Source: Acidimicrobiales bacterium (GTDB lineage: Bacteria; Actinomycetota; Acidimicrobiia; Acidimicrobiales; SZUA-35). From it: 64,000 nt of DNA. Below are positions 21,889-48,387 of the stretch, one piece after another; the stretch's first letter is position 1; every line of letters begins with the position of its first letter. The position numbers and the translations under genes were made by a program. The stretch spans positions 383,174-447,173 of the forward strand of contig CBDHHN010000004.1 of assembly GCA_965263455.1 (NCBI GenBank), given 5' to 3'. A model generated the notes under the pieces. That model saw only the letters and a list, made by a program, of their open reading frames with translations. It had not been told where the DNA came from and did not search any database.

Positions 21889-22839
21889 TCAGAAGTAGAT
21901 GACGTCGTCGAGACGGGCGGCCTTCTCCTCGAGGTCGCCGGTGTAGACGCCGGTCGACAGGTACTTCCACCCTCCGTCACAGACGATGAACAGGATCACG
22001 CCGTCCTCGATCCGCTCGGCCGTCGCCGCCGCCCCGCACAGGGCTGCACCAGTGCTGGGCCCGGCGAAGATGCCGGTCTCGGCCACCAGGCGTCGGGTCC
22101 AGTGGAGGGAGTCCACGGGCCGGACGATCCGCTTCCCGTCGAGAAGGTCGAAACCGTCCCACTGCTCGAACACGGGCGGAATGTAGCCGTCGTCCAGACT
22201 GCGAAGGCCTTCGACCCGCTCCCCCGCCGGGGGCTCGACCGCGATGACCTTGACCTCGGGCCGGTGCTCCTTCAGGTACGTGCCCACCCCCATCAGGGTG
22301 CCGCTCGTCCCCAGACCGGCCACGAAGTGGGTGATGTCCGGCACGTCGGCCAGGATCTCCGGTCCGGTCGTCCGGTAGTGGGCCCGGGGGTTGGCCTCGT
22401 TGCCGTACTGGTAGAGGAAGACCCAGTCGGGGTTGTCCTCGGCCAACTGCTGTGCCAGTCGCACCGCGCCGTTCGAGCCCTCGGCCGCCGGGGAATCGAT
22501 GATCTCGGCCCCGAACGCCTCCAGGGCGGCCCGGCGCTCCATGGTGACGTTCTTGGGCAGGACGATCTTGAGGGTGTACCCCCGGAGTCGGGCCATCATG
22601 GCGAGCCCGATCCCGGTGTTGCCCGACGATGGTTCGAGCAGGACCGAGCCCGGCCGCAGCCGACCCGTCTCCTCCGCCTCGGCCATCATGGAGCGGGCGA
22701 TGCGGTCCTTGACCGAACCGCCCGGGTTCTGGAACTCGAGCTTGGCCAGGAGCCGGACGTTCGGGTTCGGGCTGAGTCCGGAGACGTCGACAACCGGGGT
22801 GTGGCCGACGAGGTCGGCGACCGAGGCGTGGACGGGCAC
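21889..22839 (-). CDS. cysM: CysO-thiocarboxylate-dependent cysteine synthase (CysM type, PLP enzyme)
   Basis: Shows NPGGSVKDR (PLP Lys), EPSSGNTGIGLA, LYQYGNEANPRAHY, ITHFVAGLGTSGTLMG and CDGGWKYLSTG. Closely parallels my memory of M. tuberculosis CysM. Confidence 0.88.
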   Translation of the reverse strand: MPVHASVADLVGHTPVVDVSGLSPNPNVRLLAKLEFQNPGGSVKDRIARSMMAEAEETGRLRPGSVLLEPSSGNTGIGLAMMARLRGYTLKIVLPKNVTMERRAALEAFGAEIIDSPAAEGSNGAVRLAQQLAEDNPDWVFLYQYGNEANPRAHYRTTGPEILADVPDITHFVAGLGTSGTLMGVGTYLKEHRPEVKVIAVEPPAGERVEGLRSLDDGYIPPVFEQWDGFDLLDGKRIVRPVDSLHWTRRLVAETGIFAGPSTGAALCGAAATAERIEDGVILFIVCDGGWKYLSTGVYTGDLEEKAARLDDVIYF

Positions 22840-22841
22840 GG

Positions 22842-23120
22842 TCAGCCGCCGGCCACGGCGGGCAGGATGGTGACGTCGTCACCCTCCCCCACGGTGGTGT
22901 CCAGCTTGTCCAGGAAGCGGATGTCCTCGTCGTTGACGTAGACGTTCACGAACTTGCGCAGCCCGCCCTCGTCGTCGAGCAGGTTGGCCTCCAGCCCGGG
23001 GTAGTCGGCTACCAGGCCATGGACGACCTCGCCCACGGTGGAGCCGCCGACGGACACCGTCGACTGGCCGTTGGCGGCGGGCCGCAGGACGGTGGGGAGA
23101 CGGACGCTGATGGTGGACAC
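22842..23120 (-). CDS. cysO: sulfur-carrier protein CysO (MoaD/ThiS fold, C-terminal GG)
   Basis: ORF 22842..23171 trimmed to GTG 23120, preceded by GGAGG. Ends FVNVYVNDEDIRF...GDDVTILPAVAGG, as in mycobacterial CysO. Confidence 0.8.
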   Translation of the reverse strand: MSTISVRLPTVLRPAANGQSTVSVGGSTVGEVVHGLVADYPGLEANLLDDEGGLRKFVNVYVNDEDIRFLDKLDTTVGEGDDVTILPAVAGG

Positions 23121-23190
23121 GGGGAACCTCCGCAGGGTCGATCGGCAGGACCGGGAGCCCAATGCCGACATTGTTGACCTGATTCGTTAG

Positions 23191-23607
23191 CTATTGTGTC
23201 AACTCGACGGGCTCCTCCGCTATTCCGCCGTCGAGGATTCGGAAACTGCGGAGTTCGGGCTCGCCTCCCATCAGGGAAACGATGACCCAATGCCAGCTGG
23301 GAGGGATGAGTGGCTTGTCGGCCTCGGCCACGTCGGTGGGTGAGGGGTAGGCCACGGTGTGGGTGTGGGAGTGCATCACCCCGATGATGTCGAGCCCGTC
23401 CCGATCGGCGGCCAAGGCGGCCCGGGCATAGCGGGCACCGTCGAGACGGTAGATGCGGGCCGAGGCCGCTTCGTTGGGTATCGGCTCGAACCGCGCCACC
23501 CGGTCACCCTGGGGCGAGCCGAGCAGCAGGCCGCAGCCCTCGAGCGGGTAGGCGTCCCAGGCCGTCGCCACCATCTCCAGCCACGATCGGGGGGTCAGCT
23601 GCAGCAT
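23191..23607 (-). CDS. mec: JAMM/MPN+ metalloprotease Mec (CysO-processing)
   Basis: Shows EGCGLLLG and the JAMM motif GVMHSHTHTVAYPSPTD. 138 aa, located directly upstream of cysO-cysM. Confidence 0.8.
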   Translation of the reverse strand: MLQLTPRSWLEMVATAWDAYPLEGCGLLLGSPQGDRVARFEPIPNEAASARIYRLDGARYARAALAADRDGLDIIGVMHSHTHTVAYPSPTDVAEADKPLIPPSWHWVIVSLMGGEPELRSFRILDGGIAEEPVELTQ

Positions 23608-24284: not shown

Positions 24285-24671
24285 GGGGCTGATCGGTTTC
24301 GACGTCGAGACGATGAGTCGTGGGCGCGACCCGAGTTGCTCAGACTCGTAAAACGGGGCATTCACAGAAGCGGCGAAAAGACCGACTTCGCTCTCGCTGC
24401 CTGATCACTCGGGTAGTTAGAGGAACATCGCGAGCCGTGAGGCCACGCGGGGCCTGATCATTGCAGCCCGGCAACAGAAGCAGTGGTGGACGGCGGGAGA
24501 GACCGCTGACCGCAGGGAAAGACCGCTGACAGTCGGGAAAGACCGAACGGTTGGAACCTCGGTTCCCCGTGACCCGGCACGAGGGCAGCCGTACAAGCCC
24601 GCATCTCGGGAACGGTCGTAGCGAACGCGATGACTCCTCGACGGACGGGGGTTCGATTCCCCCCAGCTCCA
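24285..24671 (+). ncRNA. ssrA: tmRNA (SsrA)
   Basis: 5' end GGGGCTGATCGGTTTCGACG; 3' tRNA-like end GGACGGGGGTTCGATTCCCCCCAGCTCCA, with acceptor pairing GGGGCTG/CAGCTCC and CCA not encoded. Internal tag frame ...AGC GGC GAA AAG ACC GAC TTC GCT CTC GCT GCC TGA gives ...SGEKTDFALAA*, with the stop at 24402-24404. Located just after smpB. Confidence 0.88.
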
Positions 24672-24691
24672 CTCACTCCCCCACTGTCCCT

Positions 24692-24718
24692 CCGGGACCG
24701 GCGCCCGCCCGGTCCCGG
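24692..24718. terminator. 10-bp GC hairpin CCGGGACCGG-CGCCCGC-CCGGTCCCGG between the convergent ssrA 3' end and the stop of the solute-binding protein gene
   Basis: Read directly. No U tract on either side, so it would act as a hairpin-only or bidirectional stop, if it is functional. Confidence 0.35.
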
Positions 24719-24726
24719 GCGAGGGT

Positions 24727-26073
24727 TCAGCCCCCGACGGTGGCGGCCAACGACGGCTCGCCGTCGACGACCCGATGAATGTAGATCTCCTTGGTCGGCG
24801 TCCCCCGACCCATGTAGGAGAGCACGCCGGTGACCCCCTGCACCCCGTTGGCATCGGCGATGGCCGGTCCCAGCACGGCGGGGTCGGTGGAGCGGGTCCG
24901 CAGGTAGGCATCGGCGATCACGGCCATGGCGTCTCCGGCCAGCGCCACCATCGACGGCGCCTCCGACGGCACCCCCTCGGACGCGGCCAGGCTGGCGTTG
25001 AGGACCGAGATCCGGCTGCCGTCGGCGGGGAAGGCGTGGGTCACGTGGTAGATGCCCTCGGTCCCGGCCAGGCCGTAACCGCCGGTGGCCTCGAACGCGT
25101 CGCTCTGCAGGTACTCGACCTCGACCCCGGCCGCTTCGAGCTGTTGGCGCAGGGCAACCAACTGGAAGGCGAACATGGGGGTGTAGATCACGTCCGGTGG
25201 GTCGGCGGCGATGGCGGCCACGAACTCGCTGAAATCGTCGGTCTCGAACGGTACGAACGGGTAGTCGCCGATGACCTCGCCGCCGTTCTCGGCGAAGACG
25301 GAGCTGAAGACCAGGGTGTTGTACCCGAAGTACGGTCCCTCGGCCGAGAAGGTGACGGCCCGGGACCAACCGGAGCTGAGGGCGAACTGGGCCGCCACCG
25401 TCGCCCCCTGGGTGTCGTTGAAGGCCACCAGGTAGGACAGGGCCGTCTTGTCGCCCAAGGCCGGCTCGGTCGAGCCGGTGAAGATGACGGGGACTTCGCC
25501 CCGGGTGACCTGCAACACCCGGAAACCGGGATCGGGGAACGGCGGACCGAGTAGGACCGACACGTCCTGTTCGAGGAGGCCGTTCATGGCACTCCGGGTT
25601 TCGATCGGCTGGCCCGAGACGTCGGTGACCACCACCTCGACCGGGGTGCCGTCGAACCCGCCCGAGCAGTTGATGAGCTTGGCCAGGTGGGCCGCGGCCT
25701 GGCTCCCGGGGCCATCGGCCGGTCCCCCGATCGGGGACAGGTCGGCGGCATACCCGATCCGAAGGGGCTGACCCTCCACCGGGACGGGGCAGTTGGGGTC
25801 GGCCGCCAGCGCGGCGTCGATGTCCCAGCCGCCGGCGGCGACCGGAGCCTCGCCCTCGGTGTCGGTGTCGGTCTCGGTCTCGGTCTGCTGCCCGGCGTCG
25901 TCGGGTTGGGTCACACCCGTGAGCGTGGGCTGTGTCGTCTGGTCGTCGTCGCCCGATGAGCAGGCGGCGGCGACCAGACCGACGGCGGCGACCGCCGCCA
26001 CCAAGGCCCGGGCCGCGGGCCGACTCCCCGCCGCTGTGCTCCGCCCCCGGTCCGCCATGTCCTCCACCTGCAT
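24727..26073 (-). CDS. type I (Leu/Ile/Val-binding, LivK-like) periplasmic-binding-fold lipoprotein, orphan
   Basis: Signal peptide plus lipobox VGLVAAACSSG, an acidic linker, then PLRIGYAADLSPIGG, VLLGPPF, TALSYLVAFNDT and VIYTPMFAFQ, typical of ABC branched-chain amino-acid-type SBPs. No permease or ATPase gene adjoins it. Confidence 0.8.
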   Translation of the reverse strand: MQVEDMADRGRSTAAGSRPAARALVAAVAAVGLVAAACSSGDDDQTTQPTLTGVTQPDDAGQQTETETDTDTEGEAPVAAGGWDIDAALAADPNCPVPVEGQPLRIGYAADLSPIGGPADGPGSQAAAHLAKLINCSGGFDGTPVEVVVTDVSGQPIETRSAMNGLLEQDVSVLLGPPFPDPGFRVLQVTRGEVPVIFTGSTEPALGDKTALSYLVAFNDTQGATVAAQFALSSGWSRAVTFSAEGPYFGYNTLVFSSVFAENGGEVIGDYPFVPFETDDFSEFVAAIAADPPDVIYTPMFAFQLVALRQQLEAAGVEVEYLQSDAFEATGGYGLAGTEGIYHVTHAFPADGSRISVLNASLAASEGVPSEAPSMVALAGDAMAVIADAYLRTRSTDPAVLGPAIADANGVQGVTGVLSYMGRGTPTKEIYIHRVVDGEPSLAATVGG

Positions 26074-26924
26074 CAGCCGAACTCTCCAGGGGCCACGAGG
26101 AAATTCTTGAACTGCAGCTCGATACGCCGGTTGAACCGTCGACCCTCTTCGGTCTCGTTGGACGCCACGGGCGCATCCTCACCGGCGGCGGCCACCACCA
26201 ACTGGCCGGGCGAGGCGCCGGCACCGATGAGGTAGTCGACCACGGCGCCGGCCCGCGACGAGGCGACCTGGGCGTTCAAGTCGGGGTCGCCGGAGTCGTC
26301 GGTGTGGCCGATCACGACGACGAACAGGCTGGGGCGGCTCTGGAGCAGCCCGGCGACGAAGTCCAGGGTGGGAAGCGAGTCGGCCTCGATCTCGGAGCTT
26401 CCGAGACCGAAGTTGGCGGCCTGTTCGATCAACACCTGCCCGGACTGCACCTCTTCGGCCGCGTCCGGGTGCCAGGTGAGTTGGTTCTCCACCGCCGACG
26501 GCTCGACGCCGAGGTTGGAGGCCACGTAGTCCGTGACCAGGAGGGCCGTGGCCCAGTTGGGGGCCGAGCCGGTCACGACGGCGCTACCGGCAGGATCCAG
26601 GTCGATCCGCCGGGCCTCCGGTGGCCCATCGGGCACCGGCCCCCGGCCGCCGGGCCAGTCGTCGACCTCGGGCGACTCGACCGACTCCGGATCCGGGACC
26701 GTCATGGCCTCGGTGGTGCTGGTGGTGTCGGCCGTGGTCTCGGTCGGCACGGACGTGGTCGACGAGTCGGGCGTCACGGTCTCGGTCCCGTCGGCGGAGG
26801 AGCCGAAGGTGACCAGGTCGCGGCGTTCCAGGTTGGCGCCGAGGAGGCCCAGGTTCGTCAGGGCCAGGACGATCAGGGCCGGTAGGCGCCAGCGTCCACG
26901 ACCCGCAGGAGCTGGGCCCGTCAT
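26073..26924 (-). CDS. OmpA/MotB C-terminal-domain (peptidoglycan-binding) protein with an N-terminal TM anchor
   Basis: N-terminal helix LPALIVLALTNLGLLGANL. C-terminal FVVVIGHTDDSGDPDLNAQVASSRAGAVVDYLIGAGASPGQLVVAAAGEDAPVASNETEEGRRFNRRIELQF is the OmpA_C signature. The stop overlaps the start of the next gene (TGATG). Confidence 0.8.
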   Translation of the reverse strand: MTGPAPAGRGRWRLPALIVLALTNLGLLGANLERRDLVTFGSSADGTETVTPDSSTTSVPTETTADTTSTTEAMTVPDPESVESPEVDDWPGGRGPVPDGPPEARRIDLDPAGSAVVTGSAPNWATALLVTDYVASNLGVEPSAVENQLTWHPDAAEEVQSGQVLIEQAANFGLGSSEIEADSLPTLDFVAGLLQSRPSLFVVVIGHTDDSGDPDLNAQVASSRAGAVVDYLIGAGASPGQLVVAAAGEDAPVASNETEEGRRFNRRIELQFKNFLVAPGEFG

Positions 26925-28102
26925 GCGATCACCAGGAGAAGGACGAGGACGACGGCGAGCACGGCCAGGGCTCCGAGGGCCACGTCCATTCCGTCGAGCG
27001 TCCGTTGTTGCTGGGACTCGTCGAAGGCGAAGTCCTCGATGTTGCGGAAGTCGTTGCCGCCGGTGTCGGCGGGGCGATCGAACGAGTCGTGCCCGGTGTG
27101 GGTCGGGCGGTCGAACGAGCCGCGCGGGTCGGGCCCGGTGTGGATCGGGCCCTGGTTCGGGATTCGCTGCAACTGGTGGGTGTTGGCCACCGGGCCGGGG
27201 CGCGACCAGTCGGGTTCGGCAGGCGCTCGGAGCGATGCGTGGTCGTGGTGGCCCGCCGACTCACGGGAGAAGCTGGTGGCAGCCGACGGCGTGGCCCAAC
27301 GGCCGGACGCCGTGGTCACCGGCGCCGCTCCGTGGAGGGTGTGGCCCGCCAACAGGTTGGTGGGGGACGCCGACAGCACACCGAGGGCGACGCCGGTGGC
27401 CGGAGCGAGGGCGGCCGGGGTCACACCCCGGTTGCGACACAGCGACTCGTCGACGATCACCCCGTCGAGATAGGCGGGTGAGGTCGGGCCCGTGCCGGGG
27501 CCGGCGACCAGGAGTTCGTGGTCGAACGGGGCGTCGGCGGCCTCGAACGCCTCGAGCACCTGGTCGTCGAGCACCCGGGCCGTCCAGGCGATGCCCGACC
27601 CGAGGGAGATGGCGCCGTTGGCCACCCGGCCCAGGATCCGGGCCGCCGCCACCGGGGCCAGTTCGACCCGGTCGAGCATGAGTCCGGAATCCTCGAAGAC
27701 GCGGTGCACCAGCTCGACACAGCGGGCCGGGGCGTAGGACACCCCCGTGTCCCCCACCAGGACGAAACGCTCATCCAGCTCCATGCTGAGCGACTCGAGC
27801 CAACCCCGCAGCGCCGGCCCGCTGCCGACACCGCAGTTCGGGAAGCCGATGGTGGCGGCGGCCACGTGCCCGCTCGGATCGGTGATGCCGACCCGATCGA
27901 GGGCGGCGACGAGGGCGGCCCTGGTCGCCGCCTCGGAGTCCATCGGGTTGCGAGGGCCGCCGGCCCTGGCGATCGGTCGTTCGCTCACGTCGACGACCTC
28001 GCGCCCGGAGGGGTCCAGCATCACCAGCCGGACCTTGCTGCGGCCGATCTCCACGCCCAACGGACCGGCCCCCGAGCGTTGCGTGAAACCTGGGTTCGTC
28101 AT
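26921..28102 (-). CDS. PilM/FtsA-like (actin-fold-like) N-terminal domain protein with a disordered repeat region and a C-terminal TM tail anchor
   Basis: LGVEIGRSKVRLVMLDPSG and LDRVELAPVAAARILG resemble PilM-type motifs (judged by eye only). The C-terminal part has repeated FDRP..TG units, then DVALGALAVLAVVLVLLLVIA*. The stop overlaps the OmpA-like start (ATGA). Confidence 0.5.
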   Translation of the reverse strand: MTNPGFTQRSGAGPLGVEIGRSKVRLVMLDPSGREVVDVSERPIARAGGPRNPMDSEAATRAALVAALDRVGITDPSGHVAAATIGFPNCGVGSGPALRGWLESLSMELDERFVLVGDTGVSYAPARCVELVHRVFEDSGLMLDRVELAPVAAARILGRVANGAISLGSGIAWTARVLDDQVLEAFEAADAPFDHELLVAGPGTGPTSPAYLDGVIVDESLCRNRGVTPAALAPATGVALGVLSASPTNLLAGHTLHGAAPVTTASGRWATPSAATSFSRESAGHHDHASLRAPAEPDWSRPGPVANTHQLQRIPNQGPIHTGPDPRGSFDRPTHTGHDSFDRPADTGGNDFRNIEDFAFDESQQQRTLDGMDVALGALAVLAVVLVLLLVIA

Positions 28103-28340
28103 CTTGCCGGCCCGTCGTCAGTTCGGAGGATCACAAGACGGGGACCACCACGGGCCGTAGTGAGTAGCACGGCTTATGGACAGGGTCTCCGCCAGACGTC
28201 TGTCTCGGTCGGAACCATAGCCCGAATCTCCAACCATGTTGAAGAACGCCGTGAAATCTTGGACCGGATGCCGATATACCGCCTGGCTCAGCGACATTCG
28301 GGCTCTCGCCGGTCCCGGCTCACGACATCGGGACCGCGGC

Positions 28341-30858: not shown

Positions 30859-31755
30859 TCAGGCGTCGAGGTATCGGGTGACGGCGACACCGGCGCCGAA
30901 GGCTCCGAGCGCGGCCCCGGCGATGAGCAGAATGATGGCGACCGAGGCCACCTCGCCCCCGGTCAGGGCGAAGCTCTCGAACAGGCGAAGGTTCTCATCC
31001 CCCGTGACCGAGGTCTCGATCAGCTTGTTCAATCCGAACACACCGACGGTGGCGAAGACGGCGCCGATGAGCCCCTGGAGCAGGCCCTCCATCATGAACG
31101 GCACCCGGATGAACCAGTTGGTGGCGCCGACCAGGCGCATCACCTCGATCTCTCTTCGACGGGCGAAGAGACCGGTCCGGATGGTGTTGTACATCAGGAG
31201 GGCCGAGGCCAGGGCGGCCAGCAGGGCGGCGGCGAACATCACCCGGGAGGCGGTGTTGGTGATGTCGTTGAGCTGGCGGATGTACTCCTCGGCGTAGTCG
31301 ACGCCGCTGACCCCGGGCAGCGTCTCGATCTCAGCCCCCAGCGATCGGATCAGGGCCAGGTCGGCGATGGCGGGTACCACCCGGAACGAGGTCGGCAGCT
31401 GCTCGGGCTCCACCAGGTCGAGCACCTCGGGTTGCTCCGAGTAGTACTGCTGGAACTCGACGAAGGTGTTCTCCTGGTTCACGTAGGTGGCCTGGCGAAC
31501 CGTGGGCGACGTGTCGAGGAAGTTGCGGACCGACTCGACGTTCTCGGGAACGGCGTCGGGGCTCATCCAGACGATGAACTCCACGTCGTTCTTGAACCGG
31601 GTGTTGAACCCCTCGACCCCCCGCTGCACGAGCAGAGCGGCCCCCAGCAACGAGAGTGAGATGGCGACGGTGAGGACCGTGGCCACGGTCAGGCTCGGGT
31701 TGCGGACCAGGTTGTTGGCCGTCTCCTTGGCCAGGTAGTCGACGCGGACTGCCAT
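30859..31755 (-). CDS. ftsX: cell-division ABC transporter permease FtsX
   Basis: ORF 30859..32526 trimmed to MAVRVDYLAKETANNLVRNPSLTVATVLTVAISL. The C-terminal region has REIEVMRLVGATNWFIRVPFMMEGLLQG. Confidence 0.88.
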   Translation of the reverse strand: MAVRVDYLAKETANNLVRNPSLTVATVLTVAISLSLLGAALLVQRGVEGFNTRFKNDVEFIVWMSPDAVPENVESVRNFLDTSPTVRQATYVNQENTFVEFQQYYSEQPEVLDLVEPEQLPTSFRVVPAIADLALIRSLGAEIETLPGVSGVDYAEEYIRQLNDITNTASRVMFAAALLAALASALLMYNTIRTGLFARRREIEVMRLVGATNWFIRVPFMMEGLLQGLIGAVFATVGVFGLNKLIETSVTGDENLRLFESFALTGGEVASVAIILLIAGAALGAFGAGVAVTRYLDA

Positions 31756-31769
31756 GTCCCAGGCCCTCC

Positions 31770-32450
31770 CTACTCGTAGACGCCGCGGGCTTCGTCCCGG
31801 ACGATCTCGCCGTGGGACAACTCGACCACCCGGCGGCGCATGGTGTCGACGATGCCGCGGTCGTGGCTGGCCATGACGACGGTCGTCCCGGTCTTGTTGA
31901 TGCGGTCGAGGAGCCGCATGATCCCGATCGAGGTCTGGGGGTCGAGGTTGCCGGTGGGCTCGTCGGCCAGAAGGATCAGGGGCCGGTTGACGAAGGCCCG
32001 GGCGATCGACACCCGCTGCTGCTCGCCGCCCGACAACTGGTTGGGGTACTTGGCCATCTTGTCGCCGAGTCCGACCAGCTCGCAGATGGCGGGAACCTGG
32101 GTCCGGATGACCCCACGGGGTCGGCCGATCACCTCGAGGGCGAAGGCCACGTTCTCGGCAACCGTCTTGGACGGGAGCAGCTTGAAGTCCTGGAAGATGG
32201 CGCCGATGTTGCGGCGCAGCATCGGGACCTTCCAGCTCGACATCTGACCGATGTCCTTGCCGGCGACGAAAATGCGGCCGGCATCGGGCTCCTCCTGCTT
32301 GTTGAGCAGGCGCAGGAACGTCGACTTGCCCGAGCCCGAAGGCCCGACCAGGAAGACGAACTCCCCCTTGCCGATGTCGATGTCGGCGTCGATCAAGGCT
32401 GCATCCGAATGCCCCGGATACACCTTCGTCACGTTCTCCAGCTTGATCAT
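31770..32450 (-). CDS. ftsE: cell-division ATP-binding protein FtsE
   Basis: Trimmed to [11 protein letters not shown] (GAGG RBS upstream). Walker [10 protein letters not shown], signature [14 protein letters not shown], Walker [14 protein letters not shown]. Confidence 0.92.
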
Positions 32451-32642
32451 TGCGACCTCGTCCGTCGGCTCCGCCGTGCGTTCCGGGCCGTGCGAATCGG
32501 CCTCGGCCATCGTAGTTGCCCCCCATGGGGGCACCGGGTCACCCTCGTCCGAGGGCCGCTGACGGCCTGGGTCAGCCTACCCAGTGGCAGGGGAAGGTTG
32601 TCGGTTCTTGGATCCGAGGCCGGGTCGCCGGGACCGACCGGA

Positions 32643-40573: not shown

Positions 40574-41776
40574 CTAGCCGTCGGCCCCGAGCGGGCCGGG
40601 ACCCTCGTCGGCCGGAGCGGCCACCGCGTGGAGGATCCGAGCCTGCTCCGGCGTGGGGCGGTAGCGACCGGCGCCCGCCCACCGCCGGATTCGGAACAGG
40701 TCGGTGATGACGTCGACGCTGTCGCCGACGAGGCGGACCGACGAGCCGGCCCGGTTGGTGACGGCCACCGGCACCTCGATGAGGGAGAGCCGGTCCTGTT
40801 CGGCCATGAGGAAGATCTCGACGTCGAAGGCGAACCCGTCGATGCGGGTGCGCTCGAACAGCACCTTGCCCACATCGCCCCGAAAGCCCTTGAGACCGCA
40901 CTGGGTGTCGTGGAACTGGCCGAGCAGGACGACGTGGGTCAACAGGTTGATCACCCGCCCGCCCAGTTCGCGGATGCGGCGGGCGCGGACGAGGGTGTTC
41001 GTGTCGTCGTGGCGGCGACTGCCGACCACCACGTCCCACCCCTCCTCGACCCGCTCCATGACGTCGAGGACGAGGCTTGGGGCGTAGGCCAGGTCGGCGT
41101 CGGTGAAGACGACGGTCCGGCCCTGGGCCGCGAGCACCCCGGCCCGGACGGCGGCCCCTTTGCCCCGGTTCCGGTCCTGGACGACGACCCGGGCCCCGGC
41201 CTCGGCCGCCCGGGCCGCGGTGTCGTCGGGTGAGCCGTCGTCGACCACCACGATCTCGTGGTCGTGGCCCAGCGCCGCTTCCAGCGCGGCCCGCAGCGAG
41301 GAGACGGTGTCGCCGATCAGGTCCTGCTCGGCGTAGGCCGGCACCACCACGGTGAGGCGGAGGGGCTCGGAGGGGGCCGGGCGCTCGCGCCGTTGGGCCA
41401 ACTCCCGCCGCACCTGGTTGAAGAGAATCCGCCGGTAGGCCATCCACCGGAGGGTGGCCGCGGCCAACACCGCCACCAGCTTGGCCACCACCACCGGGAG
41501 GCCGAGCCCGTCGAGGAGGACGAGCACGGCCACGTCGACCGCCCCCGCGACCACCGCCGTCGCCGCGAACCACAGCGGTCGACGGACCCACCGGGCCTCG
41601 GGGTCGGACCGGAACGTCAGGTTCCGGTTGGCCAGGTAGGCGACCCCCGCCGCCACCGACAGGGCCAGGATGTCGGCCGCCACCAGGTTCAGGCCCTGCA
41701 ACGCCAACAGGATGCCGACGTCGACGGCCGTCGCCGCCAGACCGACGAGGACGAAGAGCCGGAGCCGGCGCCTCAC
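40574..41776 (-). CDS. GtrA-like membrane domain fused to a GT2 polyprenyl-phosphate sugar synthase-like glycosyltransferase
   Basis: N-terminal helices with FVLVGLAATAVDVGILLAL...AYLANRNLTFR (GtrA-like). Then LTVVVPAYAEQD, IVVVDDGSPDDT, NRGKGAAVRAG and FTDADLAY (Dpm1/PpgS-like GT2). The GTG start overlaps the upstream stop (GTGA). Confidence 0.85.
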   Translation of the reverse strand: MRRRLRLFVLVGLAATAVDVGILLALQGLNLVAADILALSVAAGVAYLANRNLTFRSDPEARWVRRPLWFAATAVVAGAVDVAVLVLLDGLGLPVVVAKLVAVLAAATLRWMAYRRILFNQVRRELAQRRERPAPSEPLRLTVVVPAYAEQDLIGDTVSSLRAALEAALGHDHEIVVVDDGSPDDTAARAAEAGARVVVQDRNRGKGAAVRAGVLAAQGRTVVFTDADLAYAPSLVLDVMERVEEGWDVVVGSRRHDDTNTLVRARRIRELGGRVINLLTHVVLLGQFHDTQCGLKGFRGDVGKVLFERTRIDGFAFDVEIFLMAEQDRLSLIEVPVAVTNRAGSSVRLVGDSVDVITDLFRIRRWAGAGRYRPTPEQARILHAVAAPADEGPGPLGADG

Positions 41777-44700
41777 CGCGTCGGATCGGGGTGGCCTGAA
41801 GGTTCGGGGTCGCCCGCCTCCCGCCGTCCGCCGTCGTCCGTGTCGGGCTCGAACATCACGAACATGGGGTCGTCTTCGCCCCCGTCGCCGTGCTCGGCCT
41901 CGACTTCGCCGTCATCCCCGCCATCCAACTCGCCCCCGGGCCCGGGTTTCAACTCGTCATCGGGGTCGTGACCGACGTCGGACCCGGGATCGGCGTCGAC
42001 GCCGAGGTCGGCCGGGGCGACGCCGGTCGCCGTCGCCGCGTCGAGGACGGCCGGATCGTCGAGGTGCAGGTCGTCGGATGCGAGGGTGTCGGCGGCGAGG
42101 GTGTCGCGGGCGAGAGTGTCGACGGCGGGGGTGTCGAGAGCGGGTTCGGAGGCCCGGATCGGTGCCGGCACCGGCACGTCATCGGCGGCCGCCGTCACCT
42201 CGTCGGGTCGGGCGTCGGCGTCGACCGCCTCCTCGGCCAGCCAACCGCTCAGCTCGCCGTCGTCGAAGCCGGCGACCGAGGCCAACTCTCCGTCGGCCAC
42301 CGGATCGAGGGATCGGCGACGGGCGAGGAGGGTGCCCCCGGTCCGGTCCAGGGCGCCGAGCCCTACGAGGCCGGCCAGGCCGACGGCGGTGACGAGGATG
42401 CCCAGCCAGTCGACACCGGTCCGGCCGTAGGTCAGTTCCACCTCGTTGGCCGTGGGCACCACGACCATCAGGTTGGGGCCGGCCCGGTAGGGCCCGTCGG
42501 CACCCGACGCCTGCCAGTTGGGGAAGAACGAGGTCTTGACCAGGACCGGGGCCCCGACCTCGTCCACCCGGAACGAGATCGACGAGGTGTCGGCCACCAC
42601 GTCGGAGACCGTGACCGGAGCCAGCGCCTGCTCCCCGTCGGGCGGGAGGTCGACCTGTCGGGGCCACTCCCCGGGACCATCCTCGGCCGGGAGGGCGTCG
42701 AAGGCGGCCGGATCGTTGTAGTAGTCGACGGCCTGACTCAACCAGCCGATGTCGAACCGGTTGGCCTCGGGGCCGGCCTGGAGTTCGTCCCGCCCGCTGA
42801 CCACGACGGGGGCGTAGGGCAGGGCCTCGACCAATTGGGACCCGGCCACCTCGAACACCACGAACGGCTGAGCCTCGGCCACCTCGGTCAGGTCGGGGTT
42901 CAGCCGGGCGGCGGCGATCGACTCGTCGGTCTGGGCCATGTAGTAACGGACCCCCATGACCTGGAGCTGCGCAACCCCGCGTTCGATGTCGTAGCCGAGG
43001 TAGGGCAGATCACGCTGGGCCCGGGACGGCGCCTGGGACAACACGCTCTGGTTGAGGAAATGGAACGGGGTGGTGGACGAGGACTCGAAGTAGAGGCCCT
43101 CCATCGACCCGATGCACCCGTCGGTCCAGTGGGGCAACAACATCAGGGCCATCGGCGTGCCGTAGCGGTCGAGATCGGAGCTGTACTCCCACATGGCCCG
43201 CCCGCAGCCCACGTCGTCGCCGACCTCGGTCATCGACATGACCACGCTGCGGTACTCCCGGTAGGAGTCCTTGCGCTCGTAGCCCGAGTAGTTCCAGGCC
43301 GTCCAGCTGGGGATGAAGCTCCGGGCCTGGTTGGTGAAGGCCAGCCACTGGTAGCTCCCGTCGGCCTGGGTCTGCCCGAAGGGCAGGACCCGCAGCGGCA
43401 TGCCCACCGCCACCAGACCGGCCATCAGGCCGACCAGGGCGGCGCCGGCGGTGACCCGCTGGTCGGGCCGGTCGAAGTCCTCGGAGATGGCGATGGCGGC
43501 GAAACGGATCACCAGTGCCGCTCCCACCGCCGCCACCAGATACACCGAGAGGTAGTAGAACGGGAGCAGCCGGGCGTTCCACAGCGCCGACTCGGGGAGG
43601 TTGGCCACGGCGGCGGCGAACACCAGGCCGCAGATGGCGAAGAGCTGGCCGATCCGTTCCCGCTGGGCCATCGACAACACGAAGCCGACGGCGGCCACCG
43701 GGAGGGCCACCGTCATCGGCACCGTGAGCAGGGCGGGGCCGACCTCATCGAGCCGTTCCCATCCCATGTCGTTGAAGTAGGGCTCACGGAGGTAGAAGGG
43801 CAACAGCCAGAACGCCGACAGCAGGGCGGCCACCGGGCCGGTGACGGCCAGCCACCAGAATCGACTCCGGACCGCCGGTTCGGCCACCACCACTGCGCCC
43901 AGGGTGATGACGGCCGCGGCCACGGCCAGTGCGGTGACCCCGAAGTCGGTGCCCTCGGCCAGCGCCACCGGGATGAGGATGAGGGCCACCCCGAACGCCG
44001 GCGGCCACAGCCGAGGGGTCGACGGGGACAGCACGATGAGCACGAACAGGGCGGTGACGGCGAAGAACACCGGGATCACGTGGGTCAGGGCGACGAGGGC
44101 GATGATCAGGGCCGCCAACACCCGACCCCGGCCACCGTCCATGCCCCGGACGGCAACACCCAGGGCCAGCAGGGTCAAGCTGAGCGAGATGGAGAAGGCG
44201 AACTCACCGGCCAGGGTGCTGGCGATGTTGCCGCCGTAGATCGAGAAGTTGGTGTCGAACAGGAAGAACAGCGAGGCGACGGCCAGAAACGGCGGCACCG
44301 GCTCGGGGGCCCGGGCCAGTCGGCCCATGCCCCACGCGGCCAGGGGGAAGCCGATCAGACCGCTGACGCTCACCAGCTTGAAGGCGATGCCGTAGGGCAC
44401 CGGCACGATCAGCACCGCGACCAGCGCCGCCGCCGCCACCCACCAGCCGGTCCGCCCCCACCGGAGCCCGGCGGCCACGGCCGCTCCCAGCGCCAGGGCC
44501 GCCACCGGTACGGCGACGACGAGGGAGGGCAGGCCGGCGTTCAGCCCGACGATGGCCAGGGAGGGCACCACCATGTAGAAGTGGAAGGCGGGGAACCCGG
44601 CGTACCAGTCGGGCGTCCAGCCCGAGAGCCGACCGGCCGGGAGCAGGTGGTCCCGCAGAAATGCAGGAGCCCAGACGTGGGCGCCCATGTCGCCGCCGGA

Positions 44701-44886
44701 AGGCGTGGTGTCGGCGAACAACAGGTCGGGTCGCAGCTGGATGAACACGAAGATGCCGCAGGCCAGGGCAACGACCAAGCCGATCACGGTCGACAGGTCC
44801 CAGCCCGAAGCGTCCTGCGCGGGTTCCTCGGGGTCGGGCACGGTCGCCGCCGCGACGTCATCGAGCCGGTGCGTCTGCGTGCTCAC
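41773..44886 (-). CDS. 1037-aa polytopic membrane protein with a large extracytoplasmic domain and an acidic repeat tail; candidate glycosyltransferase-C-like enzyme
   Basis: The N-terminal roughly half is a chain of hydrophobic helices with an early motif TPSGGDMGAHVWAPAFLRDHLL...GWTPDWYAGFP. A soluble region follows, then one more helix (WLGILVTAVGLAGLVGLGAL) and a tail DTPAVDTLARDTLAADTLASDDLHLDD...GGDDGEVEAEHGDGGEDD. Confidence 0.7.
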   Translation of the reverse strand: MSTQTHRLDDVAAATVPDPEEPAQDASGWDLSTVIGLVVALACGIFVFIQLRPDLLFADTTPSGGDMGAHVWAPAFLRDHLLPAGRLSGWTPDWYAGFPAFHFYMVVPSLAIVGLNAGLPSLVVAVPVAALALGAAVAAGLRWGRTGWWVAAAALVAVLIVPVPYGIAFKLVSVSGLIGFPLAAWGMGRLARAPEPVPPFLAVASLFFLFDTNFSIYGGNIASTLAGEFAFSISLSLTLLALGVAVRGMDGGRGRVLAALIIALVALTHVIPVFFAVTALFVLIVLSPSTPRLWPPAFGVALILIPVALAEGTDFGVTALAVAAAVITLGAVVVAEPAVRSRFWWLAVTGPVAALLSAFWLLPFYLREPYFNDMGWERLDEVGPALLTVPMTVALPVAAVGFVLSMAQRERIGQLFAICGLVFAAAVANLPESALWNARLLPFYYLSVYLVAAVGAALVIRFAAIAISEDFDRPDQRVTAGAALVGLMAGLVAVGMPLRVLPFGQTQADGSYQWLAFTNQARSFIPSWTAWNYSGYERKDSYREYRSVVMSMTEVGDDVGCGRAMWEYSSDLDRYGTPMALMLLPHWTDGCIGSMEGLYFESSSTTPFHFLNQSVLSQAPSRAQRDLPYLGYDIERGVAQLQVMGVRYYMAQTDESIAAARLNPDLTEVAEAQPFVVFEVAGSQLVEALPYAPVVVSGRDELQAGPEANRFDIGWLSQAVDYYNDPAAFDALPAEDGPGEWPRQVDLPPDGEQALAPVTVSDVVADTSSISFRVDEVGAPVLVKTSFFPNWQASGADGPYRAGPNLMVVVPTANEVELTYGRTGVDWLGILVTAVGLAGLVGLGALDRTGGTLLARRRSLDPVADGELASVAGFDDGELSGWLAEEAVDADARPDEVTAAADDVPVPAPIRASEPALDTPAVDTLARDTLAADTLASDDLHLDDPAVLDAATATGVAPADLGVDADPGSDVGHDPDDELKPGPGGELDGGDDGEVEAEHGDGGEDDPMFVMFEPDTDDGGRREAGDPEPSGHPDPTR

Positions 44887-44914
44887 CGGCTTCAGACTAT
44901 TGACTCAGCGCCCT

Positions 44915-45151
44915 TCAGCGGCGTCGGCCGGCGTGTTCCCCCACTTCGGCCAGGGCCTGCTCCAGGTCGATGCGCTTCCCGGCGAGGTGCCAACGACGGG
45001 TGTCGCACTTCTGGCACGACTCCATGACCAGATCGCTTCGGTCCACCGTCATCCTGATGGTGACCAGTTCGATGTTGCACCGTTCGCAGCGCGACGGTGT
45101 CTCGGGCTGCGACGGTGTCGCCCCCGAATCCGACTGCTTGTTTTCCGCCAT
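44915..45151 (-). CDS. small zinc-ribbon protein (CxxC ... CxxC)
   Basis: 78 aa with CERCNIELV...SCQKCDTRRWHL. Heads the operon containing the 1037-aa membrane protein. The composition is not junk-like. Confidence 0.55.
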   Translation of the reverse strand: MAENKQSDSGATPSQPETPSRCERCNIELVTIRMTVDRSDLVMESCQKCDTRRWHLAGKRIDLEQALAEVGEHAGRRR

Positions 45152-45273
45152 GGTCCTCGCCTTGTCACCGGGGGACCGGGAGCCGCATCCGTACGGCCGA
45201 TCACACCCGCTGACGTGTCAATCGGCGCCGACGGGACGTTCGTGAGCATCTGACCCGAAAACGTGCGCCGAGG

Positions 45274-45346
45274 CCTCGTCCCAGTTCCTCGTCCCAGGTC
45301 CTCGCCCCAGGTCCTCGCTCCGGGGCATCGGTCCGGGGCATCGGCC
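45274..45346. repeat. intergenic tandem repeats: about 3.5 x 13-mer CCTCG(T/C)CCCAG(G/T)T, then 2 x GGGGCATCGG(T)CC
   Basis: Direct reading of cctcgtcccagttcctcgtcccaggtcctcgccccaggtcctcgctccggggcatcggtccggggcatcggcc. Confidence 0.85.
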
Positions 45347-45374
45347 GGCAGGCCGGGCCGTGCCCGGGCCGCGG

Positions 45375-46100
45375 TCAGAACAACGCCAGGGCGATGAGCG
45401 TGGTGCCGTTGAAGGCCATGTGCATGACGACCGAGGTCCCCAGGCGGCCGGTCCACAGAACCAGGCCCCCGGCCACCAGGGCGAACACGAAGATGCCGGG
45501 AACCACGATCCACCCGCTGGTGGCGTGGAACAGGGCGAACACGACCGAGGAGACCGCCAGCGCCGGCCACGGACCCAGGCGTCGTTGCAGAGACCGGAGG
45601 AACAGCCCCCGGTAGGCGTACTCCTCCACCACGGGGACCAGGCCGGCCACGGCGACGGCGAACAGCAGCCACGGCCCGAGGCCGTCGACGGCGTCGACCT
45701 GGGACCGAGCCGGGGCCTCGGGGTCGGTGTCCCAGACGAGGCCGATCCCGGCGTAGAGCACGGGGAGCAGCGCCAGGTTGGTGATCAGGGCGGCACCGAC
45801 CCCGAGGGGCACGTCGATCGGGGCCAACCCGACGCCGTAGTCGCCGATCGGGCTTCGACCCTTGGCCCGGGCCACCAGGACCGGCCCCAACACGAACCCG
45901 GCCCACAGTCCGAGACCGGCCACGACCAACTGCTCGGGCGGGTACGGGGCCTGCTCGGCGGTGACCACCCCTGCCGCCACCAGCATCGAGGCCCAGACCA
46001 CGGCCAGCAGATGGGCGCCCAGGATGACCAGGACGCCGTCGGCGATCCCCCACCGCACCTCGTGGTCGGGCACGACCGGAAGCGGGTGCAGCGTCCTCAT
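45375..46100 (-). CDS. CPBP family intramembrane glutamic endopeptidase (CAAX protease-like)
   Basis: Motifs PVVEEYAYRGLFLRSL and VVFALFH, later MHMAFN; multiple TM helices. Confidence 0.85.
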   Translation of the reverse strand: MRTLHPLPVVPDHEVRWGIADGVLVILGAHLLAVVWASMLVAAGVVTAEQAPYPPEQLVVAGLGLWAGFVLGPVLVARAKGRSPIGDYGVGLAPIDVPLGVGAALITNLALLPVLYAGIGLVWDTDPEAPARSQVDAVDGLGPWLLFAVAVAGLVPVVEEYAYRGLFLRSLQRRLGPWPALAVSSVVFALFHATSGWIVVPGIFVFALVAGGLVLWTGRLGTSVVMHMAFNGTTLIALALF

Positions 46101-46248
46101 CGGGGGCCAACGTACCGTATGGGGACGCGCTCACCTCGGGCCCGGGGCCGCCGACGGGACCGCCACGCCGACGGCGGCCGTCCGGTGATGGATGTCACCC
46201 TCGGTCGCCATCGCACCTGGAACAACGCCCTCACCGACCGGGTTGAAT

Positions 46249-46262
46249 GTTGACAAGTCAAC
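46249..46262. promoter_or_regulatory. perfect palindrome GTTGAC-AA-GTCAAC (contains TTGACA) about 90 bp upstream of ftsH
   Basis: Read directly. It lies in an AT-richer stretch, preceded by a GTTGA direct half-repeat. Confidence 0.25.
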
Positions 46263-46350
46263 TGTCGGGCCCGGTGAGGCGGGCCCGCCCGGGGACGGAG
46301 CCACACCGCCCGACCTCGGTACACCTCCCTCACGTAAGTAGGCTGGATAC

Positions 46351-48294
46351 ATGAGCAAGCAAGGGTCAACCCCGCCCGAGACCCCCCAGAAGAACAACCA
46401 ACGACTGCCTGGGCGGTCGGATGGGGGATGGCCGCGCTGGTCGGCCTGGGTGGTGGTCGGCATCCTGATCGCCCTGTTGGCCATGGCCAACGTGCTGAGT
46501 GACACCCCTGGCGACGACATCGCCTATTCCCAGTTCCTGGCCGAGGTGGCCGACGATCAGATCGAGACCATCACCTACGACAACACCACGGCCCGCATCG
46601 AGGGCACCCGGAAGAACGGCGAGACCTTCACCACCACCGGGTTCTCACCGTTCCCCGACGACGATCGAGCCCTCCTCCAGGAGAACAACGTCGAGGTCGT
46701 CCCCGACACGCCGACCAGCAACTTCTTCCTGAGTCTGCTGCCGCTGTTCCTGCCGTTCCTGCTGATCATCGGGTTCTTCTGGTGGATGGCCCGACGGCAG
46801 CAGTCCCAGATGGGCGGGATCATGTCCATCGGCCGCAGCCGGGCCAAGACCTATTCCTCCGAGCGCCCGGGCACGAGCTTCAACGACGTCGCCGGCTACG
46901 GCAACGTCAAGAAGGAGATCACCGAGGTGGTCGACTTCCTGAAGGAGCCGGGCAAGTTCGCCGAGATCGGGGCCCGCATCCCCAAGGGCGTCCTCCTGGT
47001 CGGCCCTCCCGGTACGGGTAAGACCCTGATCGCCCGGGCCGTCGCCGGCGAGGCCGGCGTGCCCTTCCTGTCGGTCACCGGTTCGGACTTCATGGAGATG
47101 TTCGTCGGCGTGGGCGCCAGCCGGGTCCGCGACCTGTTCAACGAGGCCCGCAAGATGGGCCGGGCCATCATCTTCATCGACGAGATCGACTCCATCGGCC
47201 GAAAGCGGGGCGCCGGCCTCGGCGGCGGGCACGACGAGCGGGAGCAGACCCTCAACCAGATGCTGTCGGAGATGGACGGCTTCGAGGCCACCGAGGGCAT
47301 CGTGATGATGGCGGCCACCAACCGACCCGACATCCTCGACCCGGCCCTGCTCCGCCCGGGCCGGTTCGACCGCCAGGTCGTGGTGCCGCTGCCGGAACTG
47401 GACGACCGCAAGGAGATCCTGGGCGTCCACATCAAGCACAAGCGGATGGCCGAGGACGTCGACGTCGACGTGATCGCCCGCGGCACCCCGGGCATGAGCG
47501 GTGCCGATCTGGCCAACCTGGTCAACGAGGCCGCCCTGTTCGCCGTACGCGAAGGCGAATCCCGGGTCTTCGCCCGCCACTTCGACATGGCCCGGGACCG
47601 GGTCATCATGGGCGTCAAGCGCGACTCGCTGGTCATGTCGGAGGAGGAGCGGGAGATGACGGCCTATCACGAGGCCGGTCACGCCCTGTGCGCCGCCCTC
47701 CTGCCCGACTACGACCCGCTGCACAAGGTCACCATCATCCCGACCGGGATGGCCCTGGGCGTGACCATGACCCTCCCCGAGGAGGACCGGCACTCGCTGC
47801 GCAAGAAGCACGCCGAGAACATGATCATCATGATGCTGGGCGGCCGCAACGCCGAGCAGCTGGTGTTCGGCGTGGTGTCCTCCGGAGCCGGCGACGATCT
47901 GCAGAAGGCCACCGGGCTGGCCCGGCGCATGGTCCGGGAGTGGGGTATGTCCCCCGAGATCGGGCCCATGGCCTTCGGCGGTGGCGCCCCGGTCTTCCTG
48001 GGTGACGACATGATGCAGTCCAAGGAGTACTCCGACGAGCTCGCCCACCTGATCGACACCGAGACCCAACGGATCCTGGTCGAGCAGGAGAACCGGTGCC
48101 GGCAGCTGCTGATCGACAATCGGAAGGCCCTCAACCTGGTGGCCCGCGGCCTCCTGGAGCACGAGACGCTGAGCGGTGACGAGGTCAACCGGCTGATCCG
48201 GGTGGCCAACGGCGAGGACGGCCCCGCCGCTCCCCTGGCCGCCGGCTCGCCCCCGGCCGGCGGTGCCGTCGGCGTGACCGACACCCACGTCTGA
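46351..48294 (+). CDS. ftsH: ATP-dependent zinc metalloprotease FtsH
   Basis: Shows [57 protein letters not shown] and [10 protein letters not shown] (HEXXH). Confidence 0.95.
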
Positions 48295-48310
48295 GGCCCA
48301 TCGGCCGGAC

Positions 48311-48380
48311 GGGCCCCACCCACCGGGGCCCACCTACAAGCGACGAGCAGTACCATCGGGCCCCGCCATACCGGGGCCCG
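48311..48380. terminator. two GC hairpins (GGGCCCC-ACCCACC-GGGGCCC; CGGGCCCCG-CCATAC-CGGGGCCCG) between convergent genes
   Basis: Read directly between the ftsH stop (48294) and the stop of the thioredoxin-like gene (48388). There are no U tracts. Confidence 0.35.
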
Positions 48381-48387
48381 ATGCGCG

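Follow-up and report, generated by a model that had tools for sequence, protein, structure and literature searches.

Three adjacent minus-strand genes, named here g1, g2 and g3, were analysed in a window of 64,000 nucleotides (G+C ~70%) from a bacterium of the order Acidimicrobiales (assembly GCA_965263455.1, contig CBDHHN010000004.1, positions 383,174 to 447,173 of the forward strand). On sequence comparison, they appear to form a conserved putative operon specific to Acidimicrobiia, and we infer, with about even chances, that their products make up an envelope-spanning tether or sensor. The g1 gene (26921..28102) codes for a protein of 393 amino acids (aa), g2 (26073..26924) for a bitopic OmpA-like protein of 283 aa and g3 (24727..26073) for a HAAT/LivJ-type solute-binding lipoprotein of 448 aa. 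Direct reading of the sequence confirmed the three open reading frames (ORFs) reported in a first-pass annotation of this DNA, together with the two minus-strand stop/start overlaps which chain them, ATGA between g1 and g2 (26921..26924) and TGATG between g2 and g3 (26071..26075). The G+C content at third codon positions was 0.89-0.92 in each of the three genes, which is of coding type. The start of g3 is ambiguous, the ATG at 26073 overlapping the g2 stop and an alternative ATG at 26058 lying just after a GGAGG. For g1, the deposited protein P0001 has 379 aa, its start (window position 28060) lying 14 codons further downstream than the ATG at 28102, presumably at the TTG encoding Leu15; the longer ORF was favoured because the homologs conserve the N-terminus MT/SxG…LLGVEIGR.

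The first-pass annotation had called for a check of the co-occurrence of the three families, which came out positive, the trio recurring in several genomes with differing neighbourhoods and some relatives having g1 and g2 fused. A scan of species-representative genomes for g1 gave 21 loci, whose neighbouring genes were scored by local tblastn. The order g1, g2, g3 was kept at ~11 separate sites of other genomes (L002/L022, L009, L012/L024, L013, L014, L015, L019, L026 and L027), with junctions that overlap or nearly abut; the overlaps were of 4 bp or 1 bp in the called-gene tables of L002, L024, L026 and L027. The neighbourhoods of this three-gene form are of at least three unrelated kinds. 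In one, which is that of the window, it follows ftsE, ftsX, a Glu_synthase-domain gene (GluS) and an enoyl-CoA hydratase gene (ECH); in another it stands between DoxX/LigB and nitroreductase, and in a third it is flanked by OsmC/FAD-oxidoreductase and acyl-CoA dehydrogenase. We found also that two distant members of the g1 family, P0125 (658 aa) and P0146 (1146 aa), are natural g1-g2 fusions, in which a g1-type domain and a linker are followed by exactly one transmembrane (TM) helix and by an ectodomain of g2 type with an OmpA_C domain at its end. P0125 carries the VDDWPGGRGPVP motif of the g2 ectodomain, and P0146 a sub-threshold match to BON (E=0.0014). A g3-like Peripla_BP_6 gene comes next after the fusion gene at the locus L028 and overlaps it. 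We take the fusions, with the g3-like gene of L028, as strong genomic evidence that g1 and g2 would function jointly as a single transmembrane unit, with which g3 would be associated. Stop-codon readthrough or a frameshift artefact was considered as the origin of the fusions and was rejected, the fused proteins having one TM helix, missing the N-terminal segment of g2 and coming from independent assemblies.

No Pfam domain was found in g1 or in any of 52 homologs. The NCBIfam scan of g1 gave only EutJ (E=0.12), and the searches of PDB sequences, by phmmer and by profile hmmsearch, gave no significant match; the alignments to EutJ, with E=0.12 and E=1.7, are weak and were useful solely for the motif register. 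When 1.84 billion cluster representatives were searched exhaustively with a profile, 73 proteins passed the cut-off of E<=1e-3 and make up the g1 family. This search stayed within these 73 members and gave no link to PilM_2, T2SSL or PF06864, and all the taxon-labelled source names or record titles correspond to Actinomycetota or Acidimicrobiia. The g1 protein is thus the founding member of an unannotated, Acidimicrobiia-restricted family.

An AlphaFold2 (AF2) model of g1 was built with the family alignment and compared to the PDB with Foldseek. The 41 matches at E<=1e-3 were all ASKHA proteins, namely PilM, FtsA, GspL, EutJ, PPX/GppA and ROK kinases. The top match was PilM 5eou (E=2e-7), the E-values for PilM structures, 2ych among them, ranging from 2e-7 to 5e-6; FtsA 7q6d was matched at E=5e-6, and EutJ 3h1q was also found. 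The highest target-normalised TM-scores (TMt), 0.46-0.47, were obtained for the cytoplasmic domain of EpsL/GspL (1yf5 and 4pht, E ~1.5e-5), which is of similar size. The N-terminal ~245 residues of g1 are therefore modelled as a cytoplasmic minimal actin-like (ASKHA) domain (aa 10-256, 27335..28075, minus strand), with a predicted local distance difference test (pLDDT) score above 90. A PilM/FtsA-type actin fold had already been proposed on first reading; it is retained from the AF2 and Foldseek structure matches, but found no support in any of the sequence-profile tests with Pfam, NCBIfam and the PDB. The model has no insertion at the place where PilM and FtsA carry the subdomain 1C, and its second lobe is shortened.

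The motifs GFPNCGVGSGP, ELAPVAAxR and LGSGxAWxAR are invariant in the family, or nearly so in the case of the connect motif ELAPVAAxR, which is in register with EPVAAAR of EutJ; the g1 peptides quoted in the first-pass annotation are present and fall within the most conserved of the family motifs. The phosphate-1 motif is G-V-E-I-G-R where the canonical form is DxGxT/S, with Glu in 48/48 members having a residue there and with R21, in place of T/S, in 44/48. The phosphate-2 motif is (T/S)-L-G-S-G-(V/I)-A-W, compared to the canonical DxGGGTT: the position of the catalytic-site Asp is occupied by Leu in 48/52 members and never by Asp, and both Thr residues are gone. Because these key ATP-binding residues are lost, the domain is most likely a protein-binding platform and not an ATPase, and the earlier description of g1 as ATPase-like is doubtful. 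The protein is probably a minimal, non-catalytic actin-fold scaffold of the type of the GspL cytoplasmic domain.

The AF2 model agreed with the disordered segment and the C-terminal TM helix announced for the rest of g1. The linker (aa 257-367, 27002..27334, minus strand, pLDDT 40-50) is semi-conserved at two short motifs, T[YH]xLRRxP (aa 308-315) and IExFAxP (aa 355-361), and its length in the family goes from a few dozen residues up to ~650 aa in P0146. The FDRP..TG repeats pointed out earlier do exist in two copies (aa 330 and 341), but they are private to this genome, the homologs being gapped there, and are not a family feature. The TM helix (aa 371-392, 26927..26992, minus strand, pLDDT >90) leaves one residue outside, and D373, G377 and L379 are conserved in 46/52, 47/52 and 48/52 sequences, respectively.

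Pfam, AF2 and Foldseek were all in accordance with the initial view of g2 as a TM helix plus an OmpA_C domain. About 38 orthologs were found, after which the scores fell steeply to generic OmpA proteins. The AF2 model (mean pLDDT 84.8) exhibits, in this order, the TM helix, a disordered linker, a family-specific module and the OmpA_C domain. The N-terminal TM helix (aa 13-36, 26817..26888, minus strand, AF2 model) has two conserved Asn residues seven apart, N24 (35/38) and N31 (31/38). Conserved Asn residues with this spacing in a TM helix are a hallmark of polar helix-helix association, and N24 and N31 suggest such an interface, which could serve the dimerisation of g2 or its pairing with g1. 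The 12-residue cytoplasmic stub (residues 1-12) is not conserved among the family sequences. The ectodomain module (aa 87-160, 26445..26666, minus strand) is made of a VDDWPGGxGPVPxGPP motif and a beta-beta-alpha-beta unit, with pLDDT >94; in the motif, W90, G93 and P98 are conserved in 37/38 sequences each and P91 in 38/38. Foldseek of g2 gave no top match beyond the OmpA_C part, including for this module.

The OmpA_C peptidoglycan-binding domain of g2 (aa 163-283, 26076..26438, minus strand) matched PF00691 with 59.5 bits, compared to a cut-off of 27.2 (E=4e-16). Its structural matches were the C-domains of Pal, OmpA and OprF (TMt 0.8-0.92, root-mean-square deviation 1.4-2.0) and included the complex with a peptidoglycan peptide, 3td5. 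The GHTD..G signature is well conserved (G206 37/38, H207 36/38, T208 29/38, D209 36/38, G212 38/38), as are N217 (36/38) and R224 (38/38). In the OmpA C-domain of A. baumannii, a conserved Asp/Arg pair reportedly contacts the peptide stem of peptidoglycan, and we take D209 and R224 to be this pair. With the profile match, the fold and the Asp/Arg pair intact, g2 is predicted to bind peptidoglycan. A BON domain in g2 was also considered and rejected; the window protein has no BON match, which was present only in distant matches and, below the cut-off, in P0146.

The third protein, g3, matched Peripla_BP_6 with 93.4 bits (cut-off 31.7, E=3e-26) over a type-I periplasmic-binding-protein domain (aa 103-438, 24760..25767, minus strand, Pfam envelope), preceded by a signal peptide with a lipobox (…LVAAAC38) and a low-complexity tether (25960..26073, minus strand). 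A lipobox-type pattern was seen in 37/43 homologs checked, and the closest solved relatives are the branched-chain amino-acid solute-binding proteins (SBPs) 4gnr and 3td9 (E ~7e-12). The profile match and the export signal together identify g3, from its sequence, as a predicted HAAT SBP, in line with the LivJ/K-type binding lipoprotein first recognised. We found no BPD_transp_2 permease in the 64-kb window, whose Walker-A ORFs are FtsE and FtsH only and whose multi-TM ORFs are glycosyltransferases, an Rce1-like protein, a rhomboid, a DUF2231 protein and FtsX. The earlier remark that no ATP-binding cassette (ABC) genes are nearby holds for an importer permease or ATPase but not strictly, as the FtsEX ABC pair, which is not an importer, is ~4.7 kb away. 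At the trio loci of other genomes, the ~8-10 kb to each side of the three genes contained no importer permease or ATPase; upstream of L028 there are unrelated ABC genes (ABC2_membrane_2, and ABC_membrane with ABC_tran of exporter type) and no BPD_transp_2 permease.

The g3 family is far broader than those of g1 or g2. Homologs at 51-56% identity were found in marine Proteobacteria, SAR324 and Marinimicrobia, together with a lipoprotein paralog with an actinobacterial-type lipobox. As a side observation, marine Gammaproteobacteria, SAR324 and Marinimicrobia abound in SBPs with 53-56% identity to g3, of which a single sequence is listed in 407 assembly-collection blocks, and this cross-phylum conservation is unusually high. 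Such g3-like SBPs head HAAT ABC operons in L030-L032 (8001-12619) and in L033/L034 (8001-12357), and those of L030-L032 adjoin Glu_synthase-domain, aldehyde:ferredoxin oxidoreductase and ThiS genes; a Glu_synthase-domain gene is also near the window trio.

In the arrangement that we propose, g1 and g2 would amount to a single-pass membrane protein divided over two chains. Its cytoplasmic side would consist of the minimal PilM/GspL-like actin-fold domain carried on a long disordered linker which ends in the tail-anchor TM helix, and the outer side of the g2 TM helix, its linker, the family-specific ectodomain and the OmpA_C domain gripping peptidoglycan. The TM helices of g1 and g2 would associate in the membrane, where the conserved Asn residues of g2 may give a polar face, and this pairing would physically couple the wall to a cytoplasmic scaffold. 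The actin-fold domain would work as a binding platform like that of GspL, and, with the linker motifs, would recruit cytoplasmic partners. The g3 lipoprotein, presumably recruited from a clade of ABC-importer SBPs, would dock on the conserved g2 ectodomain and report or deliver a small-molecule ligand, so that the trio would be no transporter but a tether or sensor modulated by the ligand. A bolder extension, which we consider unlikely, is that the g1 family and its OmpA-type partner mechanically couple the wall to a cytoplasmic scaffold or polymer and are gated from outside by the solute-binding lipoprotein, as a monoderm analogue of the FtsA or PilM/GspL platforms and a new trans-envelope signalling or morphogenetic device.

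Several observations weigh against a tether or sensor made of the three proteins. The g1 gene was found solo in L001/L020, L004, L007, L008, L010, L016, L017, L018 and L025, always at the ftsEX-GluS-ECH site, and among the matches listed no g2 ortholog came from the solo-g1 contigs, including the 6.3-Mb chromosome of L001/L020, so that g1 function would not need g2 or g3. The g1-g2 pair without g3 was found in L003 and L029, and g1-g3 without g2 in L021; since g1 is often without g2 or g3, the complex would not be obligate. The actin-fold call rests on a predicted structure, the sequence profiles reaching no ASKHA family significantly, and no output domain, be it a kinase, a cyclase or one that binds DNA, is recognisable in g1. 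Two proteins 53-56% identical to g3, P0260 and P0230, are in canonical SBP/ABC_tran/BPD_transp_2 importer operons, and a cognate transporter for g3 elsewhere in the genome is a live possibility.

The history of the linkage was approached by the paralogs and by a rough neighbour-joining tree. Four metagenome-assembled genomes have two g1 paralogs (L007+L013, L008+L014, L017+L012/L024 and L006+L011). Three of the four have a solo g1 at the ftsEX-GluS-ECH site, with ECH inverted, and a trio elsewhere, which suggests a duplication followed by sub-functionalisation; in L006+L011 the two g1 copies are on short contigs. In the tree, the fusion and g3-linked forms were basal and the trios and solos were interleaved in the ftsEX-site clade, which suggests that the linkage is ancestral and was lost repeatedly.

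A competing explanation, possible although rather unlikely in our view, is that g3 is an ordinary importer SBP serving a distal HAAT transporter, g1 and g2 forming an independent envelope module to which the operon link brings co-expression only. The relatives P0260 and P0230 directly beside ABC_tran and BPD_transp_2 genes speak for it, and P0230 is the actinobacterial-type lipoprotein paralog of g3; because both sit in importer operons, g3 was either recruited from a transport SBP clade or is still in one. The scores of the g3 homologs show no sharp gap between the trio-linked and the transporter-linked SBPs, and the g1-g2 pairs without g3 and the solo g1 genes point in the same direction, as does the fact that orphan SBPs sharing a transporter are common (PMC8050422). 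This explanation has more difficulty with the presence of g3 after g1-g2 at ~11 sites in at least three unrelated contexts, and after the g1-g2 fusion too. At L021, g3 follows g1 even without g2, and the best 120 of 159 g3 matches contained no second close g3 paralog from the 3.6-Mb contig of the window.

The resemblance of g1 to FtsA raises another reading, to which we give a low probability: g1 as an FtsA-like anchor or scaffold of the division or wall-growth machinery near ftsEX, with g2 linking it to the wall. FtsA structures are among the top fold matches of g1, the architecture of an actin fold, a linker and a C-terminal membrane element parallels that of FtsA, and the short conserved motifs of the linker could bind partners. 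The commonest location of g1 is moreover secA-prfB-ftsE-ftsX-GluS-ECH-g1. However, two metabolic genes lie between g1 and ftsX, the trio is also found in unrelated contexts, and no ftsZ or dcw genes are near the trio of the window. The g1 domain itself, just ~245 aa long, has no 1C insertion, a truncated second lobe and degenerate nucleotide motifs.

We regard as very improbable that g1, with g2, is the assembly platform (PilM/PilN, GspL or PilO2/BfpC type) of a type-4-filament machine encoded elsewhere. The best fold matches of g1, PilM and the GspL cytoplasmic domain, agree with it, and all known bitopic minimal actin-like proteins (GspL, PilO2Bp and BfpC) belong to type-4-filament machines (PMC6233222, PMC3984277). 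Against it, the called-gene tables of the examined loci contain no T2SSE/PilB-type ATPase, PilC/GspF, prepilin peptidase or PilN/O, and no pilus or secretion genes were found among the Walker-A and multi-TM ORFs of the window. The g2 protein has no PilN-like motif, because its cytoplasmic N-terminus is not conserved, its ectodomain is OmpA_C and not ferredoxin-like, and no profile link joins g1 to PilM_2, T2SSL or PF06864. Finally, the idea that unrelated genes came to adjoin and overlap by chance, for which only the partial forms speak, is refuted by the comparative data, since the same order and overlaps recur at ~11 sites, and the several flanking contexts and the fusions recur as well.

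Full-text literature searches found no description of the combination of a PilM-like protein, an OmpA protein and an SBP, so that the first impression of a system not yet described stands. What is new is the ASKHA family and the three-part arrangement, the elements of the architecture themselves being already known. If the proposed tether or sensor is true, g1 would be a new branch of the actin-fold superfamily invisible to sequence profiles. A Gram-positive lineage would have put to new use, together with a wall anchor and a ligand-binding protein, the combination of an actin-like domain, one TM helix and an outer domain that is so far known from secretion and pilus platforms. The trio would also be the second actinobacterial case, after GlnH-GlnX-PknG, of a transporter-type binding protein in a non-transport membrane complex, and a testable entry into how the envelope works in Acidimicrobiia, which are widespread in the sea and in soil but poorly cultured. 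If g3 is a mere transport SBP, the finding would be smaller, a conserved two-gene tether with no role assigned.

The trio lies, as first annotated, in the block between ssrA and ftsX, since the coordinates of the transfer-messenger RNA (tmRNA), FtsX and FtsE bracket it. The tmRNA gene ssrA was predicted by ARAGORN at 24285-24672 on the plus strand, with smpB just beyond. On the other flank are the ECH gene, the Glu_synthase-domain gene, ftsX (~30859-31800, minus strand, between the trio and ftsE), ftsE (31770-32534, minus strand), prfB and secA. The 238-bp intergenic region from the ECH stop to the g1 start (28103..28340, minus strand) is the presumed promoter region, in which a scan for the sigma-70 consensus detected no promoter. 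Between the g3 stop and the convergent end of ssrA, a 10-bp GC stem-loop without a U-tract (24692..24718, minus strand) is a possible terminator, but the evidence is weak: its minimum free energy of -29.6 kcal/mol (z = -1.38 vs shuffles) is no better than that of shuffled sequence, and it was not called by the terminator scan.

Some other features of the window were recorded. The tag peptides of bacterial tmRNAs mostly have a hydrophobic C-terminus, for instance ...LAA. The tag peptide predicted by ARAGORN here (24285-24672, plus strand) reads AAKRPTSLSLPDHSGS up to the stop and has no hydrophobic end of the ...LAA type, which may reflect a mis-set resume codon or a lineage peculiarity. The smpB gene adjoins a trio of Prok-JAB, ThiS and PALP (cysteine-synthase-like) genes (21889-23607, minus strand), also near smpB in L002, which looks like a cluster for the sulfur-carrier-protein pathway of cysteine biosynthesis. 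A dense cell-envelope cluster extends over 40574-53728 and comprises a GT2+GtrA fusion (40574-41776), a protein of 1037 aa that has a PTPS_related domain besides ~13 TM helices (41773-44886), an Rce1-like protease, FtsH, a 567-aa ORF without Pfam match (48873-50576) and a 1051-aa membrane GT2 (50573-53728).

The trio was compared with known systems, each of which differs from it on a defining feature, either the profile, the pilus, secretion or flagellar partners, or the signalling output. It resembles parts of these systems and is a member of none. Nearest to it by architecture are GspL, PilO2Bp, BfpC and PilM-PilN, for the wall-anchor half TssL-OmpA, MotB and ArfA, and by logic GlnH-GlnX-PknG and BasB-BasT, with YfiB-YfiR-YfiN by analogy. 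The FtsZl1-OmpA association (PMC2875224) is a loose analogy. YfiB-YfiR-YfiN is also tripartite, with an OmpA-like peptidoglycan-binding protein that captures a soluble periplasmic protein and controls a membrane/cytoplasmic output, and both the YfiB model and the YfiB structures match the C-domain of g2. It is an analogy only, the Yfi system being Gram-negative, with an outer-membrane lipoprotein, a YfiR which is not an SBP and a diguanylate cyclase as output.

The long form of TssL/DotU-OmpA and MotB/PomB share with the trio an N-terminal part in the cytoplasm, a single TM helix and an OmpA-like peptidoglycan anchor at the C-terminus, and the TssL-OmpA, MotB and MotD models, as well as MotB structures, match the g2 C-domain. 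Here, in contrast, the cytoplasmic part is an actin fold in the fusions or the 12-residue stub in g2, and no MotA/ExbB or type VI secretion partners were found. ArfA (Rv0899/OmpATb) of Mycobacterium tuberculosis has the same order of N-terminal TM helix, middle alpha/beta module and OmpA_C. The g2 family profile aligns to Rv0899 (2l26) over positions 125-282, and some distant g2 relatives carry BON, whereas g2 itself has no BON match. The partner genes arfBC encode small membrane proteins, whereas the operon partners of g2 are an actin-fold protein and an SBP.

SBP-driven signalling without transport is known for GlnH/GlnX/PknG and BasB/BasT, a Peripla_BP_6 protein signalling via BasB (PMC8050422). 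These systems, like the trio, combine a cytoplasmic protein and a membrane partner with an operon-encoded SBP (lipoprotein) that has no transporter next to it, and the g2-g3 adjacency places an SBP gene beside a membrane-protein gene that is not a transporter, the arrangement used to recognise SBP-dependent signalling of the GlnH/GlnX/PknG, BasB/BasT or LuxP/LuxQ type (PMC8050422). Unlike in GlnH-GlnX-PknG, the membrane partner would be a wall-binding OmpA protein and not a four-helix-bundle sensor, and the cytoplasmic component a putative actin-fold scaffold; no kinase, methyl-accepting chemotaxis protein or GGDEF/EAL output domain was found in g1 or g2.

Among the actin-fold proteins, FtsA resembles g1 by its flexible linker and C-terminal membrane-targeting element, and g1 is near ftsEX. 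It differs in that g1 has a true TM helix where FtsA has an amphipathic one, a fold of ~245 aa compared to ~380 aa, a location outside the dcw/ftsZ cluster and no sequence similarity. PilM-PilN, with PilM as the top fold match, likewise consists of a cytoplasmic actin-fold protein and a bitopic membrane partner encoded immediately downstream. In contrast to PilM, g1 is anchored by a TM helix of its own, is modelled without an insertion of 1C type and has degenerate ATP motifs, g2 is without a conserved cytoplasmic N-terminal peptide, and the examined loci have no pilNOPQ, pilB or pilC.

The bitopic actin-like platform proteins GspL/EpsL from type II secretion and PilO2Bp and BfpC of type IVb pili (PMC6233222, PMC3984277) also combine a minimal, probably non-catalytic actin-like domain (~190-240 aa) with a single TM helix and an extracytoplasmic domain. 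Compared to them, g1 does not belong to the sequence families, the outer domain is OmpA_C instead of ferredoxin-like, a disordered linker of ~100-650 aa precedes the TM helix, and an SBP gene is attached at loci with no secretion or pilus genes near. Their topology in one polypeptide is nevertheless that of the fusions P0125 and P0146, and in the window, where it is split into two chains, it is found as the sum of g1 and g2.

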